Positions 1 through 64,000 of a stretch of 64,000 bases of DNA are shown in pieces. Positions within the stretch are counted from its first letter, which is position 1. Every line of letters begins with the position of its first letter. The stretch is from Chrysomallon squamiferum (Eukaryota > Animalia > Mollusca): positions 7,626,001-7,690,000 of the forward strand of contig CM022673.1 of NCBI GenBank assembly GCA_012295275.1, in the 5' to 3' direction. The notes under the pieces were generated by a model, which was not told where the DNA came from, ran no database searches, and saw nothing but the letters and a program-made list of their open reading frames with translations. The translations under genes and the position numbers were made by a program.

Positions 1-16709
<16,709 letters not shown>

Positions 16710-32732: not shown

Positions 32733-33292
32733 TCACACACTCACAACACCTTTATATAGTAAGAAGTCACAAGAATTTTTTAACTTAGAAAAGAAAATGT
32801 TCAAATAACTCTATATCCAGTAGTTTATTGTTTATTTATTCCAAAGCAACAGAATTTATTATGACAATTTGCATATCCCAGTGATTTATTTTCTGTGTTT
32901 TTTTTTTTCTTTCTTAATATTATAAACAGATAAGTTTGTGAAATTTATTTATTTTTGATAGTTCAGTTTAATCTTTTTATCGTGTTAATTTACACTTACT
33001 GACAGCATTAATATATGCCATTTAAATTATATACATGCAAAATAGTTCACCTACAGGCAGATTATTTACATCATATACTTAGATAACATTTTCAAATTTT
33101 TAATCATTTTCTGTATTTTACAATGTAAACACTTTTAGTTTTTGTTTAAGAAATAATACATAAAAAGATATTTCCTAATAAATAAATAAATAATGGGGTT
33201 TTTTTTTTTTTTTTTTTTTTTTTTTCTAGGAATGTTTTCTTTGAGGTGGCAGTCTTGATGTCACAAAACAATGAGGCTAGTACAATTGCATC

Positions 33293-35139: not shown

Positions 35140-35171
<32 letters not shown>

Positions 35172-38100: not shown

Positions 38101-39097
38101 GTTGGTTAATACCTCTTCTTTAAACAATAGGATTTAACATAAAAAGCTCTGAACACTAGTTTCATAGTTTTAACATTTTATATTATAATGTTTTTAATAT
38201 TTTATTCTTTATTTGTACTTTTGATTATTTATTGCTATTTTTATTGATTTTTAATTTATTTCAGGAATGTGCATGCTACAGATGACGATGACAAAACGTG
38301 TCTTCATTATGCTTCCCAGTCAAAGGCCATGTTGGCTCAGTCTGTTGTGAATATGTTGATTAACAAAGGTTCATGTACAGGTGAGATTCTGGTAGAGAAA
38401 TCAATATTATTAACCTAGCAGAGACCTGGTCTTTCACACTATTTTCTTTACAGTCCACAGAAGCTAAATCCTGATTTACAAAATCTGATCAAAATTACTT
38501 CCTGATATTAAGGTAGATTTAGTTTCACGGCATAAACAAAAAAATGAAGAAGAATTCAATAATGAATAATTGTTGCAAAAACTGAATGAAAAAGAGAAGA
38601 AAAAGAAACAAGCATCTTTCCTACCTTATTATTATTATATTTGCATTTTCAGATGCCCCAGACAAACGCCACTTTATGCCAATTCACCTTGCTTCTAAAT
38701 CAGGAAACACAAACGTGATAGTGTCACTGGTTGAAGGAGGATCAGAGGTTAACTCTAGAGGTTATGCTGGTTTAACACCATTACATATCACTGTGAGTCT
38801 TAGATATTAATGTGTCAGCTCTTAATATCAGTTAGAAGGTAGTGAGGAATTTTTGAAATTTTTACTATTTTTATTGGTTGGTTGTCTGCATGAATTATAT
38901 TTCTAAAAGCTGATAATAAGAATCGTGTTGCACCGTAAAAGTATATTGTTTGCATTTAGCTATTAAAATATTATTTTATTAACATAATCATGATAATGGC
39001 ATATTTTTATTTCTTCACCTATCACTAAAGATCAATGCCTTTATGTTTTACATTCCTTTACATTTAATTTAAAAAGAAAAAACTGAAATAAACAAAC

Positions 39098-39128
<31 letters not shown>

Positions 39129-42100: not shown

Positions 42101-45100
42101 GAATTAAACTTGGTAGTTAAAATTATTTTTAAATAGTAGGCAGATACATTATACCTAAAGTTAATATTTACAGTTGTCTTTATTTCTGTTTAAGGATTGG
42201 ACAAAACAGTTTTCATTATTTTAAAGTAGATCGTTGTCATTTAACAGAATTTTAATTTTTTTTTTAATTTTTTTTTTTTTTTTTTTTTTTAATTTTTTTC
42301 ATTTTTAATTTTTTTTTTTTTTTTAAATTGTTTTTTCAGCACGTTCTCATTCAACCTCTTCTTATGAAGAAACTGATGATGACCCACTGAAGATGATGCC
42401 ACTGGATAGAGAACTGACAGGCTTGAACATTCCCTCAACTATCCCAGAAGTCAACAGTCCAAGAGTTACTGCTGTCATCATGGGTGCAGGTGAGATGTGC
42501 TTTATGAAAACAAATTCTCAGTGTATTAACTCATCCCTGAACTCAGATCTGAGGAAGATAAGCAGCATATTTTTTTCATAATATTCTTATAGTTTTAAAT
42601 CTGATGTTTATTGTTTTAATTTGAAAGTGTATTTTATTTATAAACAATATTTTTTTCTATTATTTTTCAGCTTTATTTTTTTGTATCAAAAAATGAATTA
42701 TCTGAATCCTGTTAAATGTATTAAATTTATTAAATTTATTTAATGTTGAACACTGGAAGAGATTTGATAAAGGTCTAAAGCCTTCAAGAGATCTTAATTT
42801 AGGTAATTCTATTTGTATAAAAATTTGTATTTTATTACTTTTGTTACATCATATGGTTTTATAATACATTATCTTGCTTTATAAATATTTATATCATATT
42901 TAAAATTTTTATTGCTGTTTACAGAGGAGCATTCTGTTTCATCATCAGTGATACCTATTTATCCAAACTCTTCACGTGTGCTACCCCCAACACCGGTTCC
43001 TACATTTCTCACCCAGAAGTCTTTCAGTCTGCTGGATGGGAAACTTGTCAGATCACAAGAAAAGGTAACTGTATAACAGAATAACGTAATTATTTTTATT
43101 TACCTTAATTTTTACTGATATACCACTATAGCAAACCACTAAGTCAAATGGATTTTGTAGCAGTACCATAAGTTTAATTGATTCTGGATCATTTCAGTTA
43201 AGTCTGTATGAATTAATGTAATAGGAATATTGTATCTAAGTTATGAACATACTGAATGTTATGTAAGACACTGTTGTATTTGAATCAAATTTTTATAATT
43301 TCAGGAGCTGTCTCCTAGGTCTAATGACGAACTTCCTAAAATATTACAGGATCCGGTGAAGGCTGTGAGTGGAAACAGCCTGCTACGCAGTCACTCTATT
43401 TTCAAGGAAGAGTTCATTCTGGAAGAAAGTCGGCCAAAAGATCCATTACTGCAGTCCTCGGGCAGTGATCCTATGTCCAGTCCTAGCAGTCTTTCATCAT
43501 CTTCCCCAAGAGACATGACCAGTATTATCCTCATAAATAAAAATACTGCGAAAATTGCCAAAGGTAGGATGTCACCTTTGATAACATGTGACTCAAAGCA
43601 AATCAGTGCCTGTGAGAACACTGCTGATTCAGGGCAGCAAAATGGAATTAAAACTCGTTCTAAAGTTGGCAGAAGTCAGAGTTTCAATACTGCAGGGTCA
43701 AAGTCAGCTTCTGCTAGGAAGTTTTCTGTGCCTGATAGTGTAACAGTGCATAATAAGCATATATCACCTGGGGGAATGGAGAGTTCTAATTCTGCAGTCA
43801 AAGTGAAATTTTCCAGAAGTGATTCAGAACTGCACAAACAGTTAGAGAATGCTGTTTCTCAAAATGGTAAAAATAAATTTACAAAGACCAGACATTCAAC
43901 TCCTGCTTCAACAGAAGTGCTTGTATCTCAGAACTGTGATAAAACACATGTAAAGGACTGTGGTGCAAAGTCTAAGACTGTAGCATCAGAAACTACTGGT
44001 AAAGAAAATATCAAAAGTTTGAATATTAATTTGAGTAAAAATCCACAAAGCAACAGCTGTGTAACGTCCTAAAAATAAGGAATCACAAGTATCAGATAAA
44101 AGTGCAGACACTAAAACATCTGATAAAAATATTGTAGACAAGAAGCAAACTGTAACATCAAAGAATGCAGTAACAAATAAACCCAGTAACAATGATATGA
44201 AAGTTTCAAGTAACAGTGCCACTTCAAATAACAGTCTGAAATCAAAAACATCTGACAAAAATGACAAGGATAAACAGCAAATTACATCCAAGAATTTGGC
44301 AACCAAATCATCAGATATTTCTAATGCAAAAAAGTCTGGAGAGAATGTTGCAGTAAGAAAAAGTTCAGATTCAAAAGTATATGATAACAAAAACAGTCCT
44401 CTACAACCAGTCAGAGAGGCAGTTATAAAAACAGAGACCAAAGAAAATAGTGCTGATCAGAAAAAAGATACAAAGCTGGAGAAAGAAAATGTTTCTTATA
44501 ACGCTGAAGCGAAAAATAATGACAAGATTGTGAAGGGATATGATGCTGTTGACAAGGATCAGAAGAAAGACATAAAAAAAGAAAATAATACTCAAAACAT
44601 TTCTACTTTTACCTCACAAAACCTTTCAAAATCTTCTGGGACAACACAGAGCATTTCCTTTGTCAGTAAAAAGCAGATCGTCCCTTCAAAATCTACACAA
44701 ATGACATCTATTACCAATCAGAATAAGACTAAATTCGTAAATGCTTCAAAAAAGGTTGACTCTACTAATAGTCTTGTTAAAACTGTAGTTCACAAAACTC
44801 AACAAGTAGTTCAGGTATCAGTGGAGAAGAAATCTCAAGAGAAGGAAGATCAAACAAAGCCTGCAGTTGAAATATCCAGTGCATCAACTATTGTTTCTAA
44901 AAGAGAGATTATTTCCAGTAAGTCTCCTAAACCTGCAGTAGTTGTTCCAAAAGCTGGAGTAACAAATAATGCAAATAATGTTCATTCATCAGTTTCTAAC
45001 AGTGTGCCTACATTTAAAACGGGACCTCTTGTTCCAAAGCATGATCCTGGTGGAGTAGTAACTAAAACTGTAACAACAACTGCAAATAGTGTACCAGTTA

Positions 45101-48100
45101 CCTCAACAATCCAGACTCAGAATTCTCCAACCACAGTTTCCCAGAACAATAAGTTGAAGTCATCAGTCTCCGCTGCTGTAAACCTTCAGCCTAAAACTTC
45201 CACATCTATTCCCTCCCAGTCTCAAAAGTCTTCTGCTCCAAACAGTAAATCATTTGAATCTGCTAAGAAAAGTGCTTCCAACCTTATTTCTTCCATTAAG
45301 AACTCTGTGCAAATGAAAAATGTAAAAAGTAGTGTTACTAGTGATCCTAATTCAAAGTCAGAACATTATAAACTTTCTGATCATCACCAGTTTGGACATG
45401 TTTCTTCAACAAAGGTAAATAAAAGTGAAGCAACACCAGCTAGCAATAAAAATGATATAAATTCAAAGATAACAGTCATAAGTTCACAGCATGATTTAGA
45501 TGCTGTCAAAAATAAACATGTATCAACTCCAAAAGAACCTTTAGTAAAGATTTTACTTACAGGAGAAGAACCAAAACCCAGGATTTCCAATATACCCACT
45601 GTTAATCCTTTCCCAAGTGAAACGATACAGACACCTCTTATAGTTAATCCATTTGAAGACTTTGCTTTACCAGATTACAATATTCCTACTGTTAAACCTG
45701 CAAAAATTGCCAAAGGTGTTCCTGTGACTTCCTTTGGTTATGTGGTTGGAAAATCAACAAAAGATGCCACATGTAGATATAAAACTGCATCTAAATCTCG
45801 TGTTATCAAAAGTGCCAAAAAGACTCAGAGTAGTAAAGATTCCAAGAGACCTGTGTCTAGTAATCGACAACCATCTGCCAGAAGACGAGGTGCAAAGTCA
45901 AAACCAGGAGAACAAGAAGAAGCTCATAAGGTTAAGAGTGCTAAGGGTAAAAGGTTACGTTCAGGTAGAAGGAAGAAATCTGACCAAGAACCTGCTGAAC
46001 TTACTAAGAATGCATTAAACCACGATGTTGCAGTTATAACTGGAATTGGCTGGCATGTTACCACTGATTGTTTTGATACATCTGATGTCAAAGTTGCTAA
46101 AATGATTGATTTGTCAGATTCTGAAGACTCTGATGTTTCTGTTGTTGAACTGATAAAAGATGAAGATCCATACTTCAAATTAAAACCAAAATTAACAGAT
46201 AGATCCGCCAGTCCAAGCACACCAAGATTTCAAGAAGTCAAAATGAAACCAAAACAGAAGTCTTTACTGCCTATAATGACCAATGATGGGTTTCCACCCA
46301 TGAATCTTGATATGACTCAAGAACCATTGCCTGGTGTCCAGATTACTGAAGCAACAACTTCATCAGTAAATAAAAAACCAAATTCCAAAGAGAATAAATT
46401 TTCTTCTAAAATGGATGATATCACAGATGAAGTCCATAAGAAAACAATGTTAAAGAAAATAAATTCCATTCCTCAGTCTCCCACACTTGTCAGTACTACT
46501 GTGAATGCTATTCACTATTTTGACCAGACTGTCACAGGAGAACAGTTAGATGAGCTTTTAGGAATTAATCCTGATGAAACCATTTTGAGTAGTCACTCTG
46601 CCATAATTAAGCAAGGCTTAAGAAATGAGGCACCATCTGGTAAAAAACATTCAAGTACTATGAAGAAGAAAGCAGATGGCAAAGCCACTTCTAATTCTCA
46701 GTCATTAGTGCCAGAGAATGAAGGAAAAACATCTGCTTCAATGGACCTTAATAAAGATACATCCAACTCAGAAGAGGATAAAAACAATTTACTTGAACCT
46801 GCACTTAACAGAGAGCCTAGTGAAGAAGAGATAACTAAGATCATTAAAAAATATGCAAGCTTGAAACATACCTCCTCAAAGCCTTCCAGAGAAAGAAATG
46901 ATGCCATGGACAACGATGATTTTATGTCCAAAAGATGTGAAAGAAAGTTTTCAGAAACTAAACGAGAACAACATGAGAATGACAGTGAAATTGATGAGGC
47001 TATTGAAGAGATCCTCAATTCCACTGCTGGAACATCGACTCTGAATTCGACACTAAGATCTAATAGAACTGTGAAGTCAGTGAACAGTACACTTACTGAA
47101 GCAGACATGAGTGTTCTTCTACAACTGAAGCAGACTGATTCTGTTTTCCATGCAAAACAGTCACATGATGATGTGCATCAGACAGAAACATCTGTTGATG
47201 AAACCAATCTAAATCTTTTGAAAAGATTCCATGATGACAACTTCAAAATGGGTTCAAAACTGAAAGCTATGATAGATGCTGATGCTGATGAGTCCAAAGT
47301 AAAAGCAATGATCAATGCAGATGATGAACACAAGCAGCTAGAAAAAGTAATGAACTGTGTACGCAACATGGAGCTGCAGGTTACCATGACAAATACTTCA
47401 GGCAAAACATCAAGTAACATCAGTCCACAGAAAATTCCTGTTAGGTCTGAGCAGACTATGGAGAGTCCACACAAAAGTAAAAAGCCTCCAAGTTGTCATG
47501 GACTGCCACCATTGTTCAAGGAACTCAAGAAAACAAGTGTCCAAAAAGGAAGAGCAATTTCAGAGGTAAAATATTAGATACATCATATTTGTAGTTTTTA
47601 ACATTCCATTACAGTCATATTATTGAGTGTCTATAAAAATTGTTCTGTTTTACATGATTTAATATTTTAAAATAAAATTTGACTATCACAAAATTATTTA
47701 AATTTTTACAGCATGAAGATCAGAGTCCTCGTATTGGTAATAAGGAAGAAGCCGTACTGGAAGCCATCAGTAAAGAGATCATTATAAACCCTTCAGAGGG
47801 AGAGGTGAGTTATTTTTCTACTTTAATATATTACAAAATATTTAACTCTTTTTTTCATTGACCTCATTTTACATACCTCTAATTTCACAAATATAAACAT
47901 ATATTTTCAACAAATTGTCATCAGATGAGAAAAAATATTCAACTAAACTTAAAAAATAAACAATTTGTTTAGAAAATAAACAGTTTGTTTAAAACATAAT
48001 AATTTTTATTATTTTGTAGACAATGTGCAGTCACTTGCGTGGTCGTAGAGGCAGCAGAACAAGCAGTGCTGGGACAGTGGACAGCATTGCATCAGATTCT

Positions 48101-49241
48101 GATGAGATGATAGAGTGGAAGAAAGGAAATGTTCTTGGAAGAGGAGCATTTGGAGTGGTAAGGAAGAATTTTTACAAAACGTTTTCATAGAAAACGATAT
48201 CTTGAATTTGCCTTGGTCTGAATATTGGCATCCTAGAGGCAGATCTTGTGTGAAATACCCCCGAACCTTAATTGGATGTTAGTGCATTAATCAGGTTTTA
48301 TTCTGGTACAGAAATAGTGTAATTTTTCAAATCAAATTTGGGCTTAAATAACATTTTATGGATATATTTTAGGATGTATGTATATGCTTGTGTGCTTGTG
48401 TCCATGTGTGTGTGTGTGTGTCCATGTGTGTGTGTGTGTGTATGTGTGGAAACATTTGTTTCTGTGTGTGTATGTATACATGTGTGTGTATATATATATA
48501 TTTAGTTGTTTATTTCAAAAGTGATTTATCTTATAATACATATTAAATAATTACATTAGCAAACTTAACTTTGTTGTAATATTTGAAAATAGTTCTGGTT
48601 TAAGAATAATTTGTCTGCAGTTATATTTTTTTTTAAATATGGGGTTGTTTTTTTTTTTTAAATATTTTCTACTTCATATTTGTTTCCTTCTCCAGGTTTG
48701 GTGTGGATTAACAAATGAGGGGGAACTGATTGCTGTGAAGCAGATAGAACTGAATGCAGCTGATCACAGCAAGGCACAGCGAGAGTATGAGAAAGTTCAG
48801 GAAGAAGTGGAACTGTTGAAGAATCTCAGACACAAGAACATAGTTGGGTTTGTATTTTTTCCATTAACAGTTTACACAGCAATTTACACAAATAAAAAAT
48901 ATATATATTTACTGTGGAAAAAATTGTTTTCAGGGCATCTCATGAGGCAAATTTATTGTTAATATGTTTGTACCTATTGACAATAAAAACTATTCATAAA
49001 AATTGGTATATTATTCATGGCCATGAAATTGCCCTGGAGTATCAAAAACTGGGCATCCACTTCTATCTATAAACTAGCTGTTAAAAGCATTTGGACTCAT
49101 TGCACCTTGCAATTTCTTTATTTTTATTAAAAGTCTTAAAACATTTATGTATTTATTATTTTATTTATAAGTGTTGTATCAAAAACTGATTGTAATTACA
49201 AAATGTTTCATCTTCATTTATTTATTTTAAAATATTATATA

Positions 49242-49286
<45 letters not shown>

Positions 49287-51352
49287 TTGTAATTCTTTAA
49301 TTTTATTTATTGTTATATTTATTTTTTAGATATCTTGGAACAAGCTTTGAGAATGATATTGTCAGTATATTCATGCAGTTTGTACCTGGTGGCTCTATTG
49401 CTAGTATTTTAGCCAGGTTTGGTGCTCTGGATGAGAGTGTGTTCAGACGTTACACTAAACAGATTCTAGAAGGTGTTGAATACCTGCATGAAAATGACAT
49501 CATCCACAGGTAAAGAGATTAACTGATACAAACAAACAAAATTTACAAAAATAAGTAAATAAATAAATGCATAAATAAATGAATCTTGAAGCATTCTTAA
49601 TCCTGAATACAAAAACAGAAATAATTTACTTGTTTGTTTTTTTTTTCTTTTTTTTTAACTCTTCTCATACTATAAGTAACAAGTTTGATTTTTGGTTGAT
49701 TTCAGTAAAATGTGAATGAAATTAAATACACACACACATACACACATATATATTATTTATTTATTTATTTTAATTACAGGGATATCAAAGGAGGTAATGT
49801 TATGTTAATGCCTAATGGTGTAATAAAGTTAATAGACTTTGGCTGTGCTAAACGGCTGTGTATAAACCTCAGTTTAAGCCAGTCACAGATTCTCAAGTCT
49901 ATGAAGGGTACACCATACTGGATGGCACCAGAAGTTGTTAATGAAACTGGACATGGGAAGAAATCAGATATATGGTAATAAAATTACATTTAACTAAAAA
50001 AATGTATATGTATATTTTTCAGTAATCATAACTAGTTTCAGATATATGAAAAGTATTGTATGTAAAAACACTTGTTAACATTAGTGGGTAGAATAATGAT
50101 ATGAAGAAAACAATTGCTGCCATTTTGTAAGCTGCTATAATTGATTATATTTTCTCACAAACAAAACACACATCATAATCAGGGAACTCTGAAACTGGAA
50201 TAGGAAAACCCATTTGTGTAGTTGAAAATCTATGAAACAATCACAGTTTACATTTATCTGTCATATTGTTTTTTAGTATCTACTAAAAGGAATAATTTTT
50301 ATTAAAGATATTTATTTATATTTGATTTGTTTTTATTCTATTTCAGGAGTGTTGGTTGTACTGTGTTTGAAATGGCAACTAAAAAACCACCATGGTAATG
50401 ACAACTTTTTTTATTTAGTTATTTGGTTGTTAATAACATCAAATCATTTTATTTTAATAAGATTAAATTTTGAGAAAAAATGAAACTTGTTTCATGCTTA
50501 TTTTTATGCAGAAATATGGTGCATTTTTTTATGCACATTTTTTTTTTTTGCTGGAATACTAAATATTTGTCTTAATTTATCAAATGTTTCTTTCAGGGCA
50601 AATGTCAATCCACTGGCTGCTATATTTGCAATTGGTTCAAATAAACCCATTCCTCCTTTACCAGAGCAGTTTTCTGCAGATGCTCGTAATTTCGTTGAAA
50701 GCTGTCTTACCAGGTAAAAATATGTCACATAAAAATCATTGAAAATGTATTAGGCATTCTGAAACCAAATCATACCAAATGAATAAATAAGAAGTAAAAA
50801 TGTGGGAAAAAAAGTAAAATGCATAGATACAAATTGTAAGAAAATTATAAAAAATATTTTTAAAAAGTTAGCCTCTCATTTCATGATTTTGATTTTCATG
50901 CTAGCATATACTGATAATGATTCACCACCTTTTTGTTTGTTCTATCTTTGATCCTTGATTAAAATTATATTCATTTATAAAATTCAACCGAAAATTTGAC
51001 TGAAAACAACAACAAAAACAACAAAGGTATAATTACAGAAAAAGAAAAGAAATTGGATTTATAAATAAAAAGGTCACTGCATTTTGTTATCATTTATAGC
51101 TGTAATATTTTTTTCATAACTAACAGTTTCTTTATTTTCAATTAATAATTAACAAAACTATTAAAATATTGTTTGAGAAAGTAAAGGCTACTTAATAAAA
51201 GCATCATTAATATATAAAATAGCCTGGTATTAAATGTGCCATTATAGTAATATTATAACTGTCATATTTTCAGAGACCAGAATAAAAGATTATCTGCCTC
51301 AGAACTGCTGCAGCATCCTTTCATTTTGAAGAAATCTCCATCAAGAAAATAA
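33293..51352 (+). CDS. MAP3K19: MAP3K19/YSK4-like STE11-family kinase with N-terminal ankyrin repeats (about 2,437 aa after correcting two 1-nt insertions)
   Basis: Exons: 33293-33514, 33863-33991, 34245-34439, 37262-37422, 38265-38380, 38653-38792, 39484-39745, 40059-40104, 40262-40364, 40960-41156, 41491-41557, 41940-42064, 42340-42489, 42925-43064, 43305-47565, 47712-47804, 48020-48157, 48696-48847, 49330-49509, 49780-49974, 50347-50394, 50597-50713, 51274-51352; all GT/AG. Kinase WKKGNVLGRGAFGVVWCGLTNEGELIAVKQ...SIFMQFVPGGSIASILARFG...HRDIKGGNVMLMPNGVIKLIDFGCAKRL...[43 protein letters not shown] matches MAP3K19 as recalled. Extra bases near 39535 and 44066. Confidence 0.88.
33863..39745 (+). 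CDS. MAP3K19: Ankyrin-repeat exons of the MAP3K19-like gene
   Basis: GNTPLIWAVKKGHIKIVHLLLKHGAD; LLQAAWQGNAKVVQKLL; EGLTPLLL; KTCLHYAS; FMPIHLASKSGNTNVIVSLVEGGSEVN; GLTPLHITAYNDHHQAAKMLLQHGAD, all ankyrin consensus. Confidence 0.88.
39221..39435. mobile_element. Possible Tc1/mariner-type MITE relic
   Basis: TA followed by CAGGGTGGTGCAAAAG at the left end, an imperfect inverted copy CTTTTTGCACCCCCTCTG at the right end, about 215 bp and non-coding. Confidence 0.4.
43305..47565 (+). CDS. MAP3K19: 4.26-kb exon encoding a Ser/Lys/Thr-rich low-complexity linker of the MAP3K19-like kinase
   Basis: ORFs 43356..44072 and 44197..47577 are joined by a +1 shift at 44063-44070. Acceptor tttcAG at 43304, donor GAG|GTAAA after 47565. 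Confidence 0.85.
48020..51352 (+). CDS. MAP3K19: Kinase-domain exons of the MAP3K19-like gene
   Basis: Gly-loop GRGAFG, VAVK-type IAVKQ, HRD, DFG and APE are all intact across 7 exons; stop TAA at 51350-51352. Confidence 0.93.
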
Positions 51353-52220
51353 AGAAAATTTCTTTGTAAACAGTGGAAATTCAAAAAATAAACCATCTTG
51401 CAGCCAGTAACATCATTATGATAAATGTTGTGAAAAAGAGTGCCAGATAAAAGGAGTTATACTGCAGTATTTCATCTGTGTTATGCAGCTGTATTTCAGC
51501 CAGTTCATGCTTTTGTTATACAGCAGTGTGTCAGTCAGGCAAAGTTCTGTTTGTATGTGTATTAAACAGATGTATTTCAGCCAATTATACATGTATAGGT
51601 ATACTTTAGTTGCTTATCTACTAGACAGACATATGGAATTTTTCAGTCATTTAATGATTTATATGCAATTTACTCATTGTGATTAAAGCCACGTGGAAAT
51701 ACAACGGTATTACACTTAAAATGTGATTTTGGATGCACCATGATTTAATTATTCATATATTTAAAAAAAAATTATATGAATGTGCAAAATAAAGAATCAG
51801 ATTTGGTTTTTAATTTTGTACATTAAGTTCAGTGCAGGAATAAATATTGCATTAAATCAGTATTTCCTCTTTATTAAATCACTGTATTAGTACCACCAAG
51901 CTAGCATTAACATCTTTCTGACAGGAACATTCAACTTGAAAATCTTAAAGTTTTAAATAAGTACTGCATTGAACGAACATCAACATTTCAGTAATAAGAG
52001 TAATTATTGCAAACATTCAACAAATAGTATCAGTGATTATCAAATACATTAAAGAAGTTTTCAACAAACATTGAATAAGCACAAAAAACTTTCTCCAAGT
52101 TTTGAATTAGTACCAGAGATATTTAACAGTAACTGAATTAGCAATCACTCAGTTGGCATTATGTTAAAAAAATACTGAATCAGTGTATAAATTATTCAGC
52201 TAGAATTGAATAAGTAGCTG

Positions 52221-52775
52221 AAGTATTCCCAAGTATTGAATCAACACCTTAAGTATTCCACAAGTATTGAATCAGCACCTTAAGTATTCCACAAGTATTG
52301 AATCAGCACCTGATGTATTCGTCAAGTATTGAATCAGCACCTGAAGTATTCCACAAGTATTGAATCAGCACATGAAGTATTCCACAAGTATTGAATCAAC
52401 ACCTTAAGTATTCCACAAGTATTGAATCAGCACCTTAAGTATTCCACAAGTATTGAATCAGCACCTGATGTATTCGTCAAGTATTGAATCAGCACCTGAT
52501 GTATTCGTCAAGTATTGAATCAGCACCTGATGTATTCCACAAGTATTGAATCAGCACATGAAGTATTCCACAAGTATTGAATCAGCACATGAAGTATTCC
52601 ACAAGTATTGAATCAGCACCTTAAGTATTCCACAAGTATTGAATCAACACCTTAAGTATTCCACAAGTATTGAATCAGCACATGAAGTATTCCACATGTA
52701 TTGAATCAGCACCTGATGTATTCATCAAGAATTGAATCAACCACCTGAAGTATTCATACTAGTACTGAATCAGTG
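52221..52775 (+). repeat. 31-bp minisatellite, about 18 copies, in the probable MAP3K19 3'UTR
   Basis: Unit AAGTATTCCACAAGTATTGAATCAGCACCT(T/G), starting at 52221, 52251, 52282, 52313 ... 52716, 52748. No spacers. Confidence 0.95.
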
Positions 52776-55580
52776 TCTCAAGTATTCAGCAAATATTGCG
52801 TAAATTTAACGTTAAGAAAGAAAAGATAAACTGTACTATGTTCACATGGATGTACATAGTAATTTTCTTTTTGCAATAATGATTCGAATGGGTATTTTGT
52901 AAGAATGTTGGTTTTTTTACTGTGTTCTTTAACCTGAAATACAGAGATAACTGTTTAAAGTGTGCCTAACTTTTGTAATGGTGATGTGTGGTTTTGTGCA
53001 GCAAGAACTGTATGAAAATGGATAACTTGTCTTTTTACAAGTTCCTATTATTTGGCTGTTTTGGAATGAGTTTATGAAGATATGATCTCAAAAATGTAAT
53101 ACTCTGATTTTGTTTTTGAGATCTTGGACAAAGGTGCTAGAAATTTAGCACACTTCTGTGTTAAAGTGTTGTGATGGACTTGTTACTCTTGTGAGAGGAT
53201 TACATTCTATCGATTTTTCATTTAGTTAATTTATTTACCTTTTATTTGAAATTAAGAAAAGCAATGATTTTTGGGGAACAAAGATGTGTGTTTTTATTTT
53301 CAAAATATTCTTCATTTCTTTTTCTTTGTTTTTTATGAATAATTCTGAAAAATAAAACATTGGACACATTTGAGAATTTGAAACCTGGAGAGTAATTTCA
53401 GTCCAGTCACCAACTGCTGATGGATTTTAATTGTGATATATCAACTATTCACTTAGATTTTCAACAAAAATGCAATCTTTTGTACTTGTTGTGACTTCAC
53501 AAAATCATGATCAATAATTCAGTGTGTGAAATTTTGTAACAATTAGTATTTTACAGGACTCAGTTTTTAATGTGTTGGTTGTAACAAAACTAAACATTCC
53601 ATCTTTTTTGCTATTTACACAGTTGTGATATATATATAAAACGTTTTAGAATTATTTACAATGATTTTAATTTACTTTTGCTGTTCTGAATTTTGTTTTA
53701 ACCAATAACTTTTGATAATATTTTAACCAACTTAATATTTGATCTTTGTACATGAGCACAAGCACACTCACATACATTAATTTCAAGTATATTCATTTAC
53801 TTAACCTTGTAAAAATCTGTATAGAGAAAATTACTAATTTTATAAAACTAGGATCATTTTAATTTTATGTAATGGTTTTTACTCCACTTGGGTTTTATGA
53901 TAATTTTTACTGCTTTATGTAAATTACTTTTTTAACAATTTTGAATGAAATGATAAATTAAGACTGTATTGAATGGGCATTTCATGTAAATATTTTATGG
54001 CAGGAAATGTGTAAAAATATTACAAATATCTTCTATTGTGTAAATCTATAGTTTGATGTTTGTAACAAGATTTAGAATCTTTGACAGTTTTTCTTCATAC
54101 AGTTTTGTGTTTTTTTCATTCTACCATTATATATTTGAATATTAATATAGAATTCATTTGTTTTAAATACAGTGTCTTCATTTGTATCACTTTTATAGTT
54201 TTTACAGTTCTTTGTAAATATACACCACCATTTTCCTTTTCTAAAGTATCTTTTAAATTTTAAAATCAATGAAAATATGTATACTGCTGATAATTTACAT
54301 TTTTTGAGTGCTAAAAGAATAACTTTTTATGCAGAAATTTTACATTTTTCCACACCAGGTTTGTACATTTTATACAAAACCCTGAGAAGCAATCTAATTC
54401 ACCTCTTTTTTTTTTGGATGTAACCTTTTTATTTCATTTGTCATGCAAAATGCCAATTATGCAATATTTGAAAAGCAATTTCAGATTTGTTAAGTACCTC
54501 TTTTTAAAAGGTTAAGAAATTAATACAAAAATAAACTTTTTAAACTTCTATGTATCACTGATATTTTGGGGAGTTATTTAGCTTTTGGATGCCAAAATTA
54601 CCTTTATCTTTAGTTTTGGAAGTTGATCCTTTTATGTACATATATACGTATAATTTTATTGTTGTTTATGCACATTCCACTTTTAAACTTTATAAATTTA
54701 TTTGTAATATATTTTGTAAATCATATCAAATCATTGTATTTAGCATTTATTATAAAATATAACCAAACTAGTACTAGTTACTATTCACCCATTACTAAGT
54801 GTTTCTGTGCTGACTGAAGACTGCAATTGTTTATTAACATATGAAATGTTTTAAATAGTTGGCTTGTTCAGCTTTTTTGAAAGAATAAAATAACTGTATT
54901 ACACCAAGTATTAATAAGTAAGCAGAATGATAGCAAACAATGGAAACAAAATCAGCTAAAGATTAAAATCTTACTTAAAATTCAGCACATTTATATTACC
55001 ATTTGTATATAATTTTTTAAAACATGTGGAAGTTTATTTTTGTCATACAACTGCTACCGATACCAACTAAGCCATGTGTACATTTTGTTCAGTGTAAATA
55101 CCAGCGATACTTACTAGCATGACAACAATGGTTAGAGCTAAATACAAGTAATTCACATTTTAATTTAATATTTTGTGTATTTTTATTTGCATCGTCCTCC
55201 CAATTCAGATGTAAATAACTTCCTTACCCCAACTAACATCAATCATACAAGTATAACCATTAGCCAAAATTGTATTTTTGTATGTACCACATGTACAATC
55301 TTTAATAAAAACATTTTGAATAATACTGTTTTGTTTTGTCAGTAATAATATAATCTTTTTCCACACAAATAAAAACACTGATTACTGCTGTAAACAAGAA
55401 TTGGACATATGGACAAATACAAGTTTTAATTGGAGTGTAGCTGGAAAATTAAAATGGTTGGATGTATTAGTTCAACTGACCATACATTAAAAAAAAAAAA
55501 AAAAAAAAAAATTAAAATTAAAATGAAAACAAATAACAAAAAAGTAAGATGTATACATTTTATTTTCAGTCTGTCACTGT

Positions 55581-55704
55581 TTAAAATTTACGAAATGCTT
55601 TTTTAGATCGTGAAGTCTTCATAACTTTCAGAACATTGAAGCATACAGTTTTGGAGAGAGGTCTGCATTCACCAATTGTCACAACATCACCAACGGAAAT
55701 ATCC
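55581..55704 (-). CDS. RPS11: 40S ribosomal protein S11 (uS17), last coding exon; upstream exons lie beyond the window
   Basis: ttttcAG acceptor at 55705-55706, then (R)[40 protein letters not shown] with the RPS11 C-terminal GECRPLSKT motif. AATAAA on the minus strand at 55559-55564. Too short for the ORF track. Confidence 0.92.
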
Positions 55705-55846
55705 CTGAAAAATTAAAAACATTTGTTACAAATAAATAGTCATAAATGTATCAAAAGATAATAAATGGTTCTTTTATTCTGGAACTTTTTTTGGTAAATA
55801 TTTGAAACAAGTAGTAATGGTTTAATAAAACCTGTTTGGTACAAGC

Positions 55847-55931
55847 TGGTGTAAAATCTTTCAGAGACTTCTGAAGTATCATCACAGGATTTATGAAGAC
55901 CATCGTGATTATCATTTCGGATAATGCACCA
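55847..55931 (-). ncRNA. SNORD35: U35/SNORD35-like box C/D snoRNA, copy A1 (variant C box)
   Basis: Minus strand: ATGATAA-TCACGATGGTCTT-CATA ... GTGATGA ... CTGA (55861-55864), with a flanking TGGTG/CACCA stem. Confidence 0.65.
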
Positions 55932-56223
55932 AGAGAAAAGGTTAACAAATATTTAGTGACATATGTTACTTTAGCAAACACTGTACTGCACCTTCAGTAT
56001 TTAAGTATCTTTACTCACCTTTTTAAAAAATTTATTTCAACTTCAGTGGTAAAAATGTTTTTAACCATATGCTTATTTAATCTTAATATTATTGTAAATA
56101 GCAAAATATTTTCCATGAGAAAATTTAAAAAAATCTATGCATTTTAATATATTTCTACATCAAAACTGATCAGAATATTTAGACTAACTAAAATCTTAAT
56201 TTTATTATCATGGTTTGTTTCAA

Positions 56224-56315
56224 GTGCAACATCTGCAATCAGAAATTTAAATTTGTCATCAATTATATTTTATGAAGACCATCGTGATTAGATATCATCA
56301 TTGCAGATAATGCAC
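56224..56315 (-). ncRNA. SNORD35: U35/SNORD35-like box C/D snoRNA, copy A2 (best canonical copy)
   Basis: Terminal inverted repeat ATCTGCAA/TTGCAGAT, C box ATGATGA (56295-56301), guide TCACGATGGTCT complementary to 28S AGACCGUCGUGA, D' CATA, C' TGATGA, D CTGA (56239-56242). Confidence 0.85.
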
Positions 56316-56776
56316 CAATAAAAATGAAAAAACCAAGAAACAAATAAAATAAATTATTTTAATCAACATTACTCTGGATTGGTATTTAAAAAAGTAAACC
56401 AGCAGCAGTATCTAATCAATTCCTGTGTATGTATGGAAATGTAATGTATTAGCTATTGTGTACTAATATTTATTTCTTTAGACATCTCCATCATGTGGAA
56501 ATAGTCGCAAGAAAACTGACTGATCTACATAAATAAATCATGATAAAAATGGAACATTTTTGTTTAAAACACTTTATAGCTTAACATTTTCTTTCATGTT
56601 TATTTGTTTACTGAATAACACAGCAATATTAATATTAAAAGATTTACTAAATGTAGTTTCAAACTGGATGTTGGATAATATACAAAATCATGCAAAGATT
56701 GAACTGCAAAAATTGACAGAAAATCTAAGATAAAATGACATAGTAAATTACTTCTACATATGTACAGATTTTATAC

Positions 56777-56878
56777 ATCAGTGCAATATCTGCATTGTCA
56801 GAATTTTAATTTGTCATCAATTTTATTTTATGAAGACCATCGTGATTAGATATCATCATTACAGAACACACACTGATG
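56777..56878 (-). ncRNA. SNORD35: U35/SNORD35-like snoRNA, copy A3
   Basis: C box 56853-56859, intact guide, D box 56798-56801, outer stem CATCAGTG/CACTGATG. Confidence 0.8.
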
Positions 56879-57151
56879 AAAATTTTAAAAACAGCTTTAA
56901 ACTAATACAAAACTGAATTCAAACCTTTAGAGTAGTGAGAATCAAAAGGATGATTTATTATAAATTTGCTTAAAAAATATGCTGAACAGATAGTCATAGG
57001 ACCATTTATCTGGCAAGCTTGGGGCTTGATGTGATCTAGATTTCTGGTCCAAAACTGAAGATCAATATAAAATAATGAAAAATTGTGAGTGCAAAAGCTT
57101 TTAGAAGTGTAACATGCTGTGTATTATAATTTCATTAGAAAATGTGTTATT

Positions 57152-57238
57152 AGTGATTTATCTTACTTCAGAAACTGGTGAATATCTTCATGGTTTTTTT
57201 TAAGATAAAATAATTTCATCACTGTAGATAAACTCACT
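57152..57238 (-). ncRNA. Box C/D snoRNA-like unit related to the B type, U35 guide lost
   Basis: C GTGATGA (57216-57222), D' CTTA, C' ATGAAGA, TATTCACCAGTTT, D CTGA (57168-57171), terminal stem AGTGA-TTTATCT/AGATAAA-TCACT. Confidence 0.5.
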
Positions 57239-57548
57239 GTTCATGTGTGCTGGAGTTAATACAGATTTTGATATATTCTATAGTAGTATTAGCTGTCAAA
57301 TGCATTCAGAAAAGCAAATTACTAAATCTACATCCTGAAGAGCCATGCCTTGTTAGAACAGTCATAAACCAAATGTAGAACAATTAACAAACTGAGGATG
57401 ACAGATATTCCTATTTCTTTACCAATAGATGAAATGTTTAGTAATTAGTACTTCTGAACTACTTTATATTCTTTAAATATATTTTATATATTAAATTGTA
57501 CTGAAATTTGTCTATTAAAAATAATTTGAAAATTAAATATAATTTCAA

Positions 57549-57610
57549 CATCTGCAATCAGAAATTACAATTTTGTCATCAACATGTTATGAAGACCACA
57601 TCATTACAGA
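57549..57610 (-). pseudogene. U35-like snoRNA copy A4 with deleted guide
   Basis: Aligns to the A copies but reads GAAGACCAC-ATCATT on the plus strand, i.e. about 15 nt of guide and C-box flank are missing. Confidence 0.65.
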
Positions 57611-57900
57611 AAAAAACACTGTTAAAAATCATTAAACTTCAAATACTTTTCAAGCAATATATAGAATTTTATCTATGCTAGAATTTGGTTTGTATCCATA
57701 TAAAAAATATAAATCCTGTTCTTGCAATAACTTAAGTTTGTATATTTATTTAAATTTTATACTGCTGAATAAAATAAAGCATCTACAACGAGATATTTGA
57801 AAATGAAATTAATGATTAAATATATCTGTACAAAAACCCATTTTATTAAATATAAATATTGCAATAAAGCATCTACAACTATTTGAAAATATTAATGGTA

Positions 57901-57975
57901 TATCTGCTGTCAGAAAGGTGAATATCATCATGACATTTAAGAAGGGGATCGTGATTGTTTCATCATTGCAGACAT
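57901..57975 (-). ncRNA. B-type box C/D snoRNA, copy B1 (altered guide AATCACGATCCCCTT)
   Basis: TCTGC stem, C ATGATGA (57960-57966), D' CTTA, perfect C' ATGATGA (57925-57931), D CTGA (57910-57913), GCAGA stem. Confidence 0.75.
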
Positions 57976-58951
57976 CAAAATTGTTAATTTATGATCAACA
58001 ATGTTTTTACAGACTAATAATTTTTTTTTAAAAAGGATGGCAGATAAATGAATGAAGATTCAGTAACACCAATGGAAAGAAAGATTTTTGCTATAGGTTG
58101 TTTAAGACTGAAAGCATGCCAATGAAGAAGCTAAACCCTCCAAACTAAATCCTGCATCCAAAGCAAAAAATGTGTGATGTTGCTTGAAACTACATTCCAT
58201 TTACACTTAGATACAAAAATAATAAAAGACTACTGTGATACATTTTTATCATTACAGACAGGAATTGAAATAATATCAATTTATTAGCATGCACATGCTA
58301 AAAAATTAATTGTTGTTCTGAAGTACATGCCCTGAAATAATATCAAAGAAAAGAATTTACAAATGTTCTCAATGCTAGTTTCATCATACAAGTATCACAA
58401 GTAGTTATTTAACTATAAAAGGCTTCTACAATACTTCACAACGCACAGATGGATATTATAGGGAAATCTGTTTAATTTGCTTGTTAATATGTTCTTGGCA
58501 ATATGATCCATATTTAGTATAATCCTATCTTTAATAATTTATTTTCCTGTAATTTACTAATCTAATAAAATTGTTCATGTGTGCTGGAGTTAATTCAGAT
58601 TTTGATATATTCTATAGTAGTATTAGCTGTCAAATGTATTCAGAAAAGCAAATTACTAAATCTACATCCTGAAGAGCCATGCCTTGTTAGAGCAGTCATA
58701 AACCAAATGTAGAACAACTAACAAACTGAGGATGACAGATATTCCTACTTCTTTACCAATAGATGAAATGTTTAGTAATTAGTACTTCTGAACTACTTTA
58801 TCTTCTTTAAATATATTTTATATATTAAATTGTTTGGCCTGATCTAATTAGTGCTATCATGTAGTAAAATATTATTACATTTAAATTTCAAATAGGTTAC
58901 AACCCAAGTAATCTATTAATCATTGAATTATGAAAATTAACATTTATATAC

Positions 58952-59045
58952 CAGTGCAACATCTGCAATCAGAAATTACAATTTTGTCATCAACATGTTA
59001 TGAAGACCATCGTGATAATGTATCATCATTACAGAAAAAACACTG
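58952..59045 (-). ncRNA. SNORD35: U35/SNORD35-like snoRNA, copy A5
   Basis: C 59023-59029, intact guide, D 58969-58972, stems TCTGTA/TGCAGA and CAGTG/CACTG. Confidence 0.78.
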
Positions 59046-59403
59046 TTAAACTTCAAATACTTTCAAGCAATATACAGAAGTAAATAGCTATCTATGCTAG
59101 AATTTGGTTTGTATCCATATAAAATGATGTTTGTATCAAGAATTACCCCATACACATGCCCCCCAAAAATCCTGTTCTGCTGATTAACCAAGTAACTTAA
59201 GTTTGTATATTTATTTAAATTTTATACACCTGAATAAAATAAATCAACTGGACACAATTTCTTTCCGAGATGGAAATTTTATAAATGGTCTGAAAATAAT
59301 TTGATTAAATATAATTTCTAACTGTTGTGTGTACAAAAACCCATTTTATTAAATATAAATATTGCAATAAAGCATCTACAACTATTTGAAAATATTAATG
59401 GTA

Positions 59404-59478
59404 TATCTGCTTTCAGAAACGTGAATATCATCATGACATTTAAGAAGGGGATCGTGATCGTTTCATCATTGCAGACAT
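59404..59478 (-). ncRNA. B-type box C/D snoRNA, copy B2
   Basis: C 59463-59469, D 59413-59416, guide GATCACGATCCCCTT. Confidence 0.75.
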
Positions 59479-60466
59479 CAAAATTGTTAATTTATGATCA
59501 ACAAGCCTCTTATTAAATTTACTATGTTCTTACAGAATAATAATTTTTTTTAAAAGGATGGCAGATAAATGAAGGAAGATTCAGTAATACCAATGGAAAG
59601 ACAGATTTTTGCTATAGGTTGTTTAAGACTGAAAGCATGCCAATGAAGAAGCTAAACCCCTCCAAACTAAATCCTGCATTCAAAGCAAAAAATGTGTGAT
59701 GTTGCTTGAAACTACATTCCATTTACACTTACATAGATACAAAAATAAAAAGACTACTGTGATAAATTTTTATCATTACAGACAGGAATTGTAATAGTAT
59801 CAATTTATTAGCATGCACATGCTAAAAAATTAATTGTTCTAAAGTACACGCCCTGAAATAATATCAAAGAAAAGAATTTACAAATATTCAGAATGCTAGT
59901 TTCATCATACAAGTGTCACAAGTGGTTATTTAACTATAAAAGGCTTCTACAATGGCTCGCAACACACAGATGGATATTAAAGGGAAATCTGTTTAATTTG
60001 CTTGTTAATATGATCCATATTTACTATAATCCTATCTTTAATAATTTATTTTCCTGTAATTTACTAATCTAATAAAATTGTTCATGTGTGCTGGAGTTAA
60101 TACAGATTTTGATATATTCTATAGTAGTATTAGCTGTCAAATGCATTCAGAAAAGCAGATTACTAAATCTACATCCTGAAGAGCCATGCCTTGTTAGAGC
60201 AGTTATAAACCAAATGTAGAACAACTAATAAACTGAGGATGACGGATATTCCTATTTCTTTACCAATAGATGAAATGTTTAGTAATTAGTACTTCTGAAC
60301 TACTTTATATTCTTTAAATATATTTTATATATTAAATTGTTTGGCCCGATCTAATTAGTGCTATCATGTAGTAAAATATTATTACATTTAAATTTCAAAT
60401 AGGTTACAGCCCAAGTAAACTATTAATCTATTAAATATTGAATTATGAAAATTAACATTTATATAC

Positions 60467-60560
60467 CAGTGCAACATCTGCAATCAGAAATTACAATTTT
60501 GTCATCAACATGTTATGAAGACCATCGTGATAATGTATCATCATTACAGAAAAAACACTG
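60467..60560 (-). ncRNA. SNORD35: U35/SNORD35-like snoRNA, copy A6
   Basis: C 60538-60544, intact guide, D 60484-60487. Confidence 0.78.
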
Positions 60561-60874
60561 TTAGAACTTCAAATACTTTCAAGCAATATACAGAAGTAAA
60601 TAGCTATCTATGCTAGAATTTGGTTTGTATCCATATAAAATGATGTTTGTAACAAGAATTACCCCATACACATGCCCCCCCAAAATCCTATTCTTCTAAT
60701 TAAGCAAGTAACTTAAGTTTGTATATTTATTTAAATTTTATACGCTGAATAAAATAACGCAGCTGGACACAATTTCTTTCCGAGATGGAAATTTTATAAA
60801 TTGTCTGGAAATAATTTGATTAAATATAAATATTGCAATAAAGCATCTACAACTATTTGAAAATATTAATGGTA

Positions 60875-60949
60875 TATCTGCTTTCAGAAATGTAAATATC
60901 ATCATGACATTTAAGAAGGGGATCGTGATTGTTTCATCATTGCAGACAT
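60875..60949 (-). ncRNA. B-type box C/D snoRNA, copy B3
   Basis: C 60934-60940, D 60884-60887, guide AATCACGATCCCCTT. Confidence 0.75.
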
Positions 60950-61939
60950 CAAAATTGTTAATTTATGATCAACAAGCCTCTTATTAAATTTACTATGTTT
61001 TTACCGAATAATAATTTAAAATAAAAGGATGGCAGATAAATGAAGGAAGATTCAGTAATACCAATGGAAAGACAGATTTTTGCTATAGGTTGTTTAAGAC
61101 TGAAAGCATGCCAATGAAGAAGCTAAACCCTCCAAACTAAATTCTGCATCCAAAGCAAAAAAATGTGTGATGTTGCTTGAAACTACATTCCATTTACGCT
61201 TAGATACAAAAATAATAAAAGACTATTGTGATAAATTTTTATCATTACAGACAGGAATTGAAATAATATCAATTTATTAGCATGCACATGCTAAAAAATT
61301 AATTGTTGTTCTGAAGTACATGCCTTGAAATAATATCAAAGAAAAGAATTTACAAATATTCAGAATGCTAGTTTCATCATACAAGTGTCACAAGTGGTTA
61401 TTTAACTGTAAAGTGCTTCTACAATGGCTCACAACACACAGATGGATATTATAGGGAAATCAGTTTAATTTGCTTGTTAATATGTTCTTGGCAATATGAT
61501 CCATATTTACTATAATCCTATCTTTAATAATTTATTTTCCTGTAATTTACTAATCTAATAAAATTGTTCATGTGTGCTGGAGTTAATACAGATTTTGATA
61601 TATTCTATAGTAGTATTAGCTGTCAAATGCATTCAGAAAAGCAAATTACTAAATCTACATCCTGAAGAGCCATGCCTTGTTAGAGCAGTCATAAACCAAA
61701 TGTAGAACTCATAAACTGAGGATGACGGATATTCCTATTTCTTTACCAATAGATGAAATGTTTAGTAATTAGTACTTCTGAAATACTTTATCTTCTTTAA
61801 ATATATATGTTAAATTTTTTGGCCTGATCTAATTAGTGCTATCATGTAGTAAAATATTATTACATTTAAATTTCAAATAGGTTACAAGTAATCTATTAAT
61901 CTATTAAATATTGAATTATGAAAATTAACATTTATGTAC

Positions 61940-62033
61940 CAGTGCAACATCTGCAATCAGAAATTACAATTTTGTCATCAACATGTTATGAAGACCATCG
62001 TGATAATGTATTATCATTACAGAAAAAACACTG
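61940..62033 (-). ncRNA. SNORD35: U35/SNORD35-like snoRNA, copy A7 (C box mutated to ATGATAA)
   Basis: C variant 62011-62017, intact guide, D 61957-61960. Confidence 0.65.
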
Positions 62034-62389
62034 TTAGAACTTCAGATACTTTCAAGCAATATACAGAAGTAAATAGCTATCTATGCTAGAATTTGGTTTG
62101 TATCCATATAAAATGATGTTTGTATCAAGAAGTACCCCATACACATGCCCCCCAAAAAAAACCTATTCTTCTAATTAAGCAACTTAAGTTTGTATATTTA
62201 TTTAAATTTTATACGCTGAATAAAATAAATCAACTGGACACAATTTCTTTCCGAGATGGAAATTTTATAAATGGTCTGAAAATAATTTGATTAAATATAA
62301 TTTCTAACTGTTGTGTGTACAAAAACCCATTTTATTAAATATAAATATTGCAATAAATCATCTACAACTATTTGAAAATATTAATGGTA

Positions 62390-62464
62390 TATCTGCTTTC
62401 AGAAATGTAAATATCATCATGACATTTAAGAAGGGGATCGTGATTGTTTCATCATTGCAGACAT
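62390..62464 (-). ncRNA. B-type box C/D snoRNA, copy B4
   Basis: C 62449-62455, D 62399-62402. Confidence 0.75.
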
Positions 62465-63435
62465 CAAAATTGTTAATTTATGATCAACAAGCCTCTTATT
62501 AAATTTACAATGTTTTTACAGAATAATAATTTTTTTTTAAAAAGGATGGCAGATAAATGAAAGAAGATTCAGTAATACCAATGGAAAGACAGATCTTTGC
62601 TATAGGTTGTTAAAGACTGATAGCATGCCAATGAAGAAGCTAAACCTTCCAAACTAAATCCTGCATCCAAAGCAAAAAATTAGGACATGTTCCTGTGTGA
62701 TGTTGCTTAAAACTACATTCCATTTACACTTATATAGATACAAAAATAAAAAAAGACTATTGTGATAAACTGAAATAATATCAATATATAAGCATGCACA
62801 TGCTAAAAAATTAATTGTTGTTCTAAAGTACATGCCCTGAAATAATATCAAAGAAAAGGATTTACTAATATTCAGAATGCTAGTTTCATCATACAAGCAA
62901 TTATTTAACTATAAAGGGCTTCTACAATGGCTCGCAACACAGATAGATATTACAGGGAAATCAGTTTAAGTTGCTTATTAATATGTTCTTGGCAATATGA
63001 TCCATATTTACTATAATCCTATCTTTAATAATTTATTTTCCTTTAATTTATTAATCTAATAAAATTGTTCATGTGTGCTGGAGTTAATACAGATTTTGAT
63101 ATATTCTATAGTAGTATTAGCTGTCAAATGCATTCAGAAAAGCAAATTACTAAATCTACATCCTGAAGAGCCATGCCTTGTTAGAGCAGTTATAAACCAA
63201 ATGTAGAACAACTAACTGAGGATGACGGATATTCCTATTTCTTTACCAATAGATGAAATGTTTAGTAATTAGTACTTCTGAAAAACTTTATCTTCTTTAA
63301 ATATATTTTATATATTAAATTGTTTGGCCTGATCTAATTAGTGCTATCATGTAGTAAAACATTATTACATTTAAATTTCAAATAGGTTACAAGTAATCTA
63401 TTAATCTATTAAATATTGAATTATGAATTTTATGA

Positions 63436-63504
63436 ATCTGCAACCATCAACATGAATTATGAAGACCATCGTGATAATGTATCATCATTACAGAAAAAAC
63501 ACTG
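63436..63504 (-). pseudogene. U35-like snoRNA copy A8 lacking the D box
   Basis: C box (63482-63488) and guide are intact, but the segment carrying the D box is deleted (plus strand ATCTGCAA-CCATCAAC). Confidence 0.65.
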
Positions 63505-63866
63505 TTAGAACTTCAGATACTTTCAAGCAATATACAGAAGTAAATAGCTATCTATGCTAGAATTTGGTTTGTATCCATATAAAATGATGTTTGTGTCAAG
63601 AAGTACCCCATACACATGCCCCCCCCCAAAAAAACCTATTCTTCTAATTAAGCAAGTAACTTAAGTTTGTATATTTATTTAAATTTTATACGCTGAATAA
63701 AATAAATCAACTGGACACAATTTCTTTCCGAGATGGAAATTTTATAAATGGTCTGAAAATAATTTGATTAAATATAATTTCTAACTGTTGTGTGTACAAA
63801 AACCCATTTTATTAAATATAAATATTGCAATAAAGCATCTACAACTATTTGAAAATATTAATGGTA

Positions 63867-63941
63867 TATCTGCTTTCAGAAACGTGAATATCATCATGAC
63901 ATTTAAGAAGGGGATCGTGATTGTTTCATCATTGCAGACAT
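63867..63941 (-). ncRNA. B-type box C/D snoRNA, copy B5
   Basis: C 63926-63932, D 63876-63879. Confidence 0.75.
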
Positions 63942-64000
63942 CAAAATTGTTAATTTATGATCAACAAGCCTCTTATTAAATTTACAATGTTTTTACAGAA

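Follow-up and report, generated by a model that had tools for sequence, protein, structure and literature searches.

The region analysed here lies upstream of the last coding exon of the gene for the ribosomal protein RPS11 (uS17) in Chrysomallon squamiferum, in a stretch of 64,000 nucleotides (assembly GCA_012295275.1, contig CM022673.1, positions 7,626,001 to 7,690,000 of the forward strand) that we call the window. It contains 14 units resembling genes for box C/D small nucleolar RNAs (snoRNAs), eight of a type designated A and six of type B, all of them on the RPS11 sense strand and upstream of the last exon. The locus is real and unusual, but explicable: it is most likely an intronic cluster of SNORD35-like C/D units in an animal ribosomal-protein gene, in which more than half of the array copies are broken or have no known target. 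The host gene is represented by two features.

55581..55704, minus strand: final coding exon of RPS11 (uS17), joined by splicing to an exon that lies upstream, beyond the window
55705..64000, minus strand, open at the window edge: probable last intron of RPS11, at least 8.3 kb, with the acceptor AG ending at 55705

The last exon shows no differences from RNA contigs of two sequencing runs, X8 and X9, both from one study, and these contigs lead from it directly into coding sequence of RPS11 further upstream. The exon preceding it was not found within the 64-kb window. Because RNA joins the last exon to an exon absent from the window, we infer a single intron of more than 8.3 kb, and most likely the array sits in it, the upstream exon lying outside. 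Nine sequencing runs from three studies contain the stretch; four of them (X1, X7, X8 and X9) were compared, over positions 55515-57450, outside the interior of the tandem repeat described below. Among 127 matches the closest is the RPS11 of a vent snail, Gigantopelta aegis (88% over 40 residues). The exon encodes Cys for the usual Arg in the KTV(R)F motif (55641-55643 region). We considered whether this marks a pseudogene and rejected the idea, given the identity of the RNA contigs and the presence of the same Cys in Gigantopelta aegis and in 17 of 120 matches.

The units were scored with a model, R2, built from 35 of the 53 distinct matches of a pattern scan of metagenomes, none of them from the window, after near-duplicates and likely chance matches had been dropped. 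All training matches were chosen by guide pattern, and the model therefore favours the guide by construction. Another model, R1, was set aside, its predicted structure being implausible. The A-type units and their decayed relatives are given below with R2 scores in bits, unless Rfam is named.

55860..55921, minus strand: A0, guide intact, box C non-canonical, weak stem, B-like 3' half, 29.7 bits; probably decaying
56232..56306, minus strand: A1, intact, 46.5 bits (Rfam SNORD35 25.5 bits), strongest extended external stem
56792..56865, minus strand: A2, intact SNORD35-like, 42.8 bits
57550..57610, minus strand: A3, broken, 14 nt lost from the last part of box C through most of the guide, 15.4 bits, partial
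58962..59034, minus strand: A4, intact SNORD35-like, 44.7 bits (Rfam 23.4 bits)
60477..60549, minus strand: A5, intact SNORD35-like, 44.7 bits
61950..62022, minus strand: A6, guide intact, G>A in box C, 39.6 bits
63436..63494, minus strand: A7, broken, 3' half and box D deleted, 34.3 bits
58190..58268, minus strand: decayed A-like remnant; also near 59720-59798 and 61180-61258, and partial in repeat unit 4; one copy 13.8 bits

R2 places 12 of the 14 units above background: seven A units score 29.7-46.5 bits and B1-B5 24.1-28, A3 reaches 15.4 and B0 is missed, while the rest of the window stays at or below 15.2. A 17-nt motif of guide plus D' occurs seven times, as compared with no occurrence in 100 shuffles. 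Boxes C (RUGAUGA) and D (CUGA) are found together with a terminal stem in four of the eight A units (A1, A2, A4 and A5), this combination failing in A0, A3, A6 and A7. The four intact ones also carry the guide, D' and C'. Terminal stems are present on all intact units, whose distances from the 3' splice site range from 534 to 8171 nt. The stem duplex of A1 reaches -19.6 kcal/mol and its fold a z of -3.3, and from its sequence this unit appears the best candidate for a working copy; in run X7 the guide of A0 is altered at 7 of 12 bases. Box D' reads CATA in all eight A units, a form that none of the 53 distinct matches from other loci shows; C' and D' boxes are often degenerate (PMC11028025). 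Since each full repeat unit bears a decayed third copy besides A and B (three to four remnants in all), there are about 18 related elements in total, nine of them with intact boxes C and D and a stem, and four of these nine with SNORD35-type guides.

Assignment of the A units to a family depends on the threshold applied. At the gathering score, Rfam gives no match in the 64 kb; in E-value mode, six A units match SNORD35 (RF00211) with 20.2-25.5 bits, against a cut-off of 36. In a control of the same score, the cut-off was reached by only 1 of 12 homologous copies in seven other loci, so it is a poor test outside vertebrates. The A units are thus classed, by their sequence, as SNORD35-like and not as Rfam members. 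Their guide is identical to the guide of the Rfam SNORD35 consensus, and it pairs over 12 bp (one of them G-U) with the conserved 28S ribosomal RNA (rRNA) site in 28S fragments of other eukaryotes, a pairing that 1 in 60 shuffled guides equalled. Counted upstream from the A-unit D', the fifth base stands opposite the expected C of 28S, which we take to be the same C as human 28S-C4506. Human RPS11 hosts SNORD35B, directed to 28S-C4506 (PMC6466398).

The B-type units differ from the A units chiefly in their guides.

57162..57227, minus strand: B0, C/D boxes and stem, no recognisable guide; missed by R2
57903..57971, minus strand: B1, boxes intact, guide altered, 25.2 bits
59406..59474, minus strand: B2, boxes intact, guide altered, 24.1 bits
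60877..60945, minus strand: B3, boxes intact, guide altered, 28 bits
62392..62460, minus strand: B4, boxes intact, guide altered, 28 bits
63869..63937, minus strand: B5, boxes intact, guide altered, 25.5 bits

In B1-B5 boxes and stem are intact and three adjacent guide bases are changed, so that the SNORD35 antisense element is missing. Common descent with SNORD35 is nevertheless indicated by their sequences, because these five units score 24.1-28 bits, against a background of at most 15.2, despite a model that favours the guide. The search for a B target in partial rRNAs gave nothing above chance, the best pairing score of 20 being equalled by 43 of 60 shuffled guides. The target set comprised 18S positions 1-1137 with a core part, 28S positions 2326-3401 and one contig, L069, that is not rRNA; the 5' two-thirds of 28S, the 3' end of 18S, small nuclear and transfer RNAs and the organism's own rRNA were outside it, and further scans for rRNA sequences to extend the set found none. 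A separate observation is that a contig from the genome of a bacterial symbiont includes an 18S rRNA fragment of animal type (L063:9255-10437), probably a result of host contamination or chimeric assembly. No B-type unit was found in 60 other snoRNA loci. The B units probably represent orphan paralogs that the repeat has carried with it.

Ten of the 14 A and B units are held by a head-to-tail repeat of about 1.49 kb, which starts at 57238 and is still open at 64000, with four full units and a cut fifth.

57238..58571: repeat unit 1, terminal and most diverged
58572..60078: repeat unit 2
60079..61564: repeat unit 3
61565..63065: repeat unit 4
63066..64000: repeat unit 5, cut by the window edge

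The copies outside it, A0-A2 and B0, lie between 57238 and the RPS11 exon, the three A copies being older single ones beside the repeat. Units 2-5 differ by 2.6-4.1%, and unit 1 differs from the others by 6.2-8.0%. The final ~260 bases of the units vary less (2-3%, as compared with 7-11%, for unit 1; p=0.004 if unit 1 is included, 0.18 if it is left out), which we read as recent homogenisation, and they adjoin a GTGAGT donor-like site at 57237 (minus strand), exactly where the repeat terminates. No hidden H/ACA or other RNA was recognised within the repeat, where we found neither an Rfam match above noise nor a convincing fold.

It might be supposed that such an array was created by the assembly process, and run X1 may indeed be the source of the assembly. 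However, the units are 2.6-8% apart and have private indels, and the head-to-tail junction at 57238 is seen as a loose end in runs X1, X9 and X7. The last of these belongs to a different study and has diverged by ~5% (43 differing letters over 826 bases); thus, an artefact of a single assembly does not account for the repeat. Contigs at the repeat start also exceed their single-copy neighbours in depth by a factor of 2.4-3.7, which hints roughly at an array of a handful of units and not hundreds. An artefact, the danger foreseen when the array was first described, is thereby largely ruled out, and we regard it as extremely improbable.

The first-pass annotation, which had described a last intron of RPS11 with eight A and six B units related to U35/SNORD35, mostly inside a ~1.5-kb tandem repeat still running at the window edge, is borne out in its outline. 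The repeat was mapped from 57238 to 64000, and RPS11 is supported as a SNORD35 host by the spliced downstream exon and by the same intron in three other loci (below). The last exon is spliced and adjoins the array, while the status of the intron is deduced, its upstream exon being beyond the window. All 14 units were located on the RPS11 strand, but not all are complete: four of the eight A units are intact, A0, A3, A6 and A7 are damaged and B0 is without a guide. As to SNORD35 identity, homology and the 28S pairing of the A units speak for it, yet only 4 of the 14 units could act as SNORD35-type guides, and the suggested Rfam check returned six sub-threshold matches (20.2-25.5 bits) and none at the 36-bit cut-off.

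Comparison with other loci shows that the association of host and snoRNA is not confined to this organism. Three of 60 loci with the SNORD35 pattern bear RPS11 exons (L024, L027 and L045), and in all three the snoRNA is in the same last intron. In L024, from another organism, two SNORD35 copies stand ~85 nt apart (1010-1235) with no workable exon between them; L027 and L045 have one visible copy each, their contigs ending close upstream. As the position is shared by three other loci it must be old, and a SNORD35-like gene was likely ancestral in the last RPS11 intron. The multi-copy state is not unique either, because L024 has two copies. Together with intronic clusters as a described class, this weakens the initial interpretation. 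SNORD35 was also encountered in other hosts, for instance one per intron of a Noc2 gene in L005, with an exon between the copies; among the 148 of 242 short open reading frames scanned for hosts of the other multi-copy loci, only this Noc2 and TPR matches appeared. SNORD35 is also carried by a group of 37 related loci, frequently as pairs separated by 0.6-1.9 kb without an intervening Pfam-positive exon; in L053:2982-3950 there may be a non-coding exon of 34 nt, such as a non-coding host gene for snoRNAs would have.

Five repeat units side by side allowed us to ask how the copies evolve. Of the 74 columns in A, 9 are variable, as are 4 of the 70 in B and 124 of the 1077 in the spacer (p=0.85 for A, 0.17 for B), and there are two indels in A and none in B, against a mean of 2.0 per 70 columns. 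Three of the five A copies in the repeat are broken. There is no purifying signal on the repeat's A copies, which vary as fast as spacer DNA.

Our best reading of the locus is a birth-and-death expansion of an ancestral intronic snoRNA. We incline, somewhat, to the view that the guide comes from a few intact A copies, a single trimmed small nucleolar ribonucleoprotein (snoRNP) being the product of most intron molecules, and that the repeat copies are largely passengers. In such a scheme, older short duplications would have given rise to A0-A2 and to the B and remnant units, and unequal crossing-over would then have amplified a 1.5-kb block of one A, one B and one remnant. The intact units, 0.5-8 kb from the 3' splice site, may assemble the snoRNP proteins by a splicing-independent route via their external stems; this route is proposed because they are far (534-8171 nt) from the splice site and have terminal stems. 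Human C/D snoRNAs prefer a position ~50 nt upstream of the branch point, but where external stems are long, assembly can proceed independently of splicing (PMC5519232). After excision, exonucleases would digest the intron down to whichever unit had assembled, mostly one per intron molecule; where two units had assembled, a snoRNA-ended intermediate would result, subsequently cut or degraded. Judged by their sequences, A1, A2, A4 and A5 likely work as predicted guides for one 28S methylation, the rest drifting or decaying.

Several observations weigh against this scheme. When units 2-4 are taken alone, A is variable at 1 of 74 columns, as compared with 73 of 1160 (p=0.12), and B is without an indel or box change in all five copies, where 15% of 70-column windows are likewise free of indels. 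Such conservation of A in units 2-4 and of B fits weak selection, and five young copies give little power. The CATA form of D' could weaken the A-unit guide. Moreover, the upstream RPS11 exon and the rest of the array lie beyond the window.

The first of the alternatives is a working polycistronic cluster, in which several units per intron assemble and an endonuclease separates them, raising the snoRNA dose. Nine units between the last exon and the window edge keep boxes C and D and the stem, in a gene whose exons are joined directly in two RNA runs of one study, and the two-copy state of L024 suggests that animals tolerate such introns. Endonuclease release is assumed for Drosophila intronic H/ACA clusters and for plant intronic clusters. 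In Drosophila itself, where intronic H/ACA clusters exist, C/D snoRNAs keep to one per intron (PMC3089462), and in our array we detected no significant constraint, while of the five A copies in the repeat three are broken. We consider a cluster of this kind unlikely. The B units, for their part, might be retargeted guides selected for a new methylation site, the repeat having spread because it amplifies B. The three adjacent guide changes, the boxes, the stem and the D'-guide are all unchanged in 5 of 5 copies, the B D' 4-mer recurs in 2 of the 53 matches from other loci, and extra snoRNA copies and target switching by point changes are described in frogs (PMC6984369). This has to be set against the best pairing in partial rRNAs, matched by most shuffled guides, and against a conservation of B that is not significant (p=0.17), and the chances of retargeting seem to us poor. 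Similarly poor are those of the stronger combined proposal, according to which the RPS11 intron is a true polycistronic C/D cluster, with up to nine snoRNPs freed by an endonuclease, while the B paralogs, derived from SNORD35 through three guide-base changes and multiplied along with the repeat, direct a new lineage-specific RNA methylation.

Two further proposals concern what else the intron RNA might become. Non-coding spacer exons or recursive splice sites, used in a minor isoform that is probably subject to nonsense-mediated decay, could give each snoRNA its own intron. The best hint is a near-consensus donor at 56018 (56011-56024, minus strand; score 8.4), between A1 and A0, but it is changed at its G in run X7, in which the A0 guide is also disrupted. 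The moderate donor at 57237, at the very end of the repeat, is absent from units 2-5. With the same rough matrix, scores of true donors in the window range from -1.5 to 8.6, so weak repeat sites may serve; at the same time, 74 equally scoring sites occur on the other 55.7 kb of that strand, and the coding mRNA contigs join the upstream exon straight to the last one. We give this possibility little credence. Still more doubtful is a yield of stable long RNAs ended by snoRNAs (sno-lncRNAs), 0.4-8 kb in length and trimmed to the outermost assembled units. The intact units at 56232-56306 and upstream could cap both ends, and this is a described outcome for two C/D snoRNAs in one mammalian intron (PMC11028025), but the known examples are mammalian, and the spacers consist of young DNA that mutates freely (38 indel events in 1566 columns), with no Rfam match or conserved element. 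Among the contigs listed, those of intron RNA are scattered, with a depth of 2.8-6.0 against 201-241 on the RPS11 exon, the stretch from A1 to A2 has none, and 55515-57450 contains no RNA-only joint. Because these contigs come from long-RNA libraries of unstated type, which cannot rank RNA levels or show RNA ends, intron cover speaks in neither direction on sno-lncRNAs or spacer exons. Should most intron molecules assemble a single snoRNP, as the birth-and-death scheme would have it, then endonuclease, spacer exons and sno-lncRNAs would not be required.

As regards the neighbourhood, a minisatellite (52205-52798, 19 copies of a 31-bp unit) lies between a kinase gene and the RPS11 3' end. That gene (33281-50717, plus strand) encodes ankyrin repeats and a protein kinase and includes a 1170-codon open exon without Pfam matches (44065-47577); a second kinase gene occupies 300-16709 on the minus strand. 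The two are presumably MAP3K-like and HIPK-like.

Animal snoRNAs occur mostly one per intron (PMC11028025, PMC7038934). For C/D snoRNAs this rule rests on few model species, and the RPS11 array, most likely in one intron, would break it in an essential, highly expressed gene. Private single-nucleotide differences in the copies could show which of them mature, and whether animals cut several C/D snoRNPs from one intron; the locus also displays birth, decay and possible retargeting of a snoRNA across five young copies side by side. Should most copies be silent passengers, it would be an ordinary tandem duplication in a tolerant intron. A literature search, covering few subscription papers, found no mollusc snoRNA cluster and no multi-copy SNORD35 intron, and the available main text of PMC11014333, whose supplements may bear on the question, does not mention RpS11 or same-intron C/D clusters.

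The closest known relative of the array is vertebrate SNORD35B (RF00211; PMC6466398), with which it shares the host gene, the guide, the predicted target base, the C/D/C'/D' layout and the terminal stem. It differs in having 14 or more copies in place of one, a D' box of CATA, 61-63 nt between boxes, scores below the Rfam cut-off, and B paralogs with a changed guide. The Drosophila intronic clusters, of H/ACA type, likewise place several related snoRNAs in one intron of a housekeeping gene (PMC3089462). Unlike them, the RPS11 array is of box C/D type in an animal, was built by a 1.5-kb tandem repeat, and has many broken copies. Rice intronic clusters reportedly show a comparable arrangement, with several related snoRNAs per housekeeping-gene intron. 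More than one C/D unit per intron, inseparable by exonucleases alone, is found at the locus of Prader-Willi syndrome (PWS) and with SNORD49A/B in SNHG29 (PMC11028025). The array differs from these in its ribosomal protein-coding host and its greater number of units. SNORD115 and SNORD116 reside in a non-coding host, largely one per intron with repeated exons, and in the RPS11 array no repeated exon was recognised. What the latter has in common with the SNORD115/SNORD116 arrays is the tandem repetition of C/D snoRNA genes whose guides are orphan or drifting (PMC7038934).

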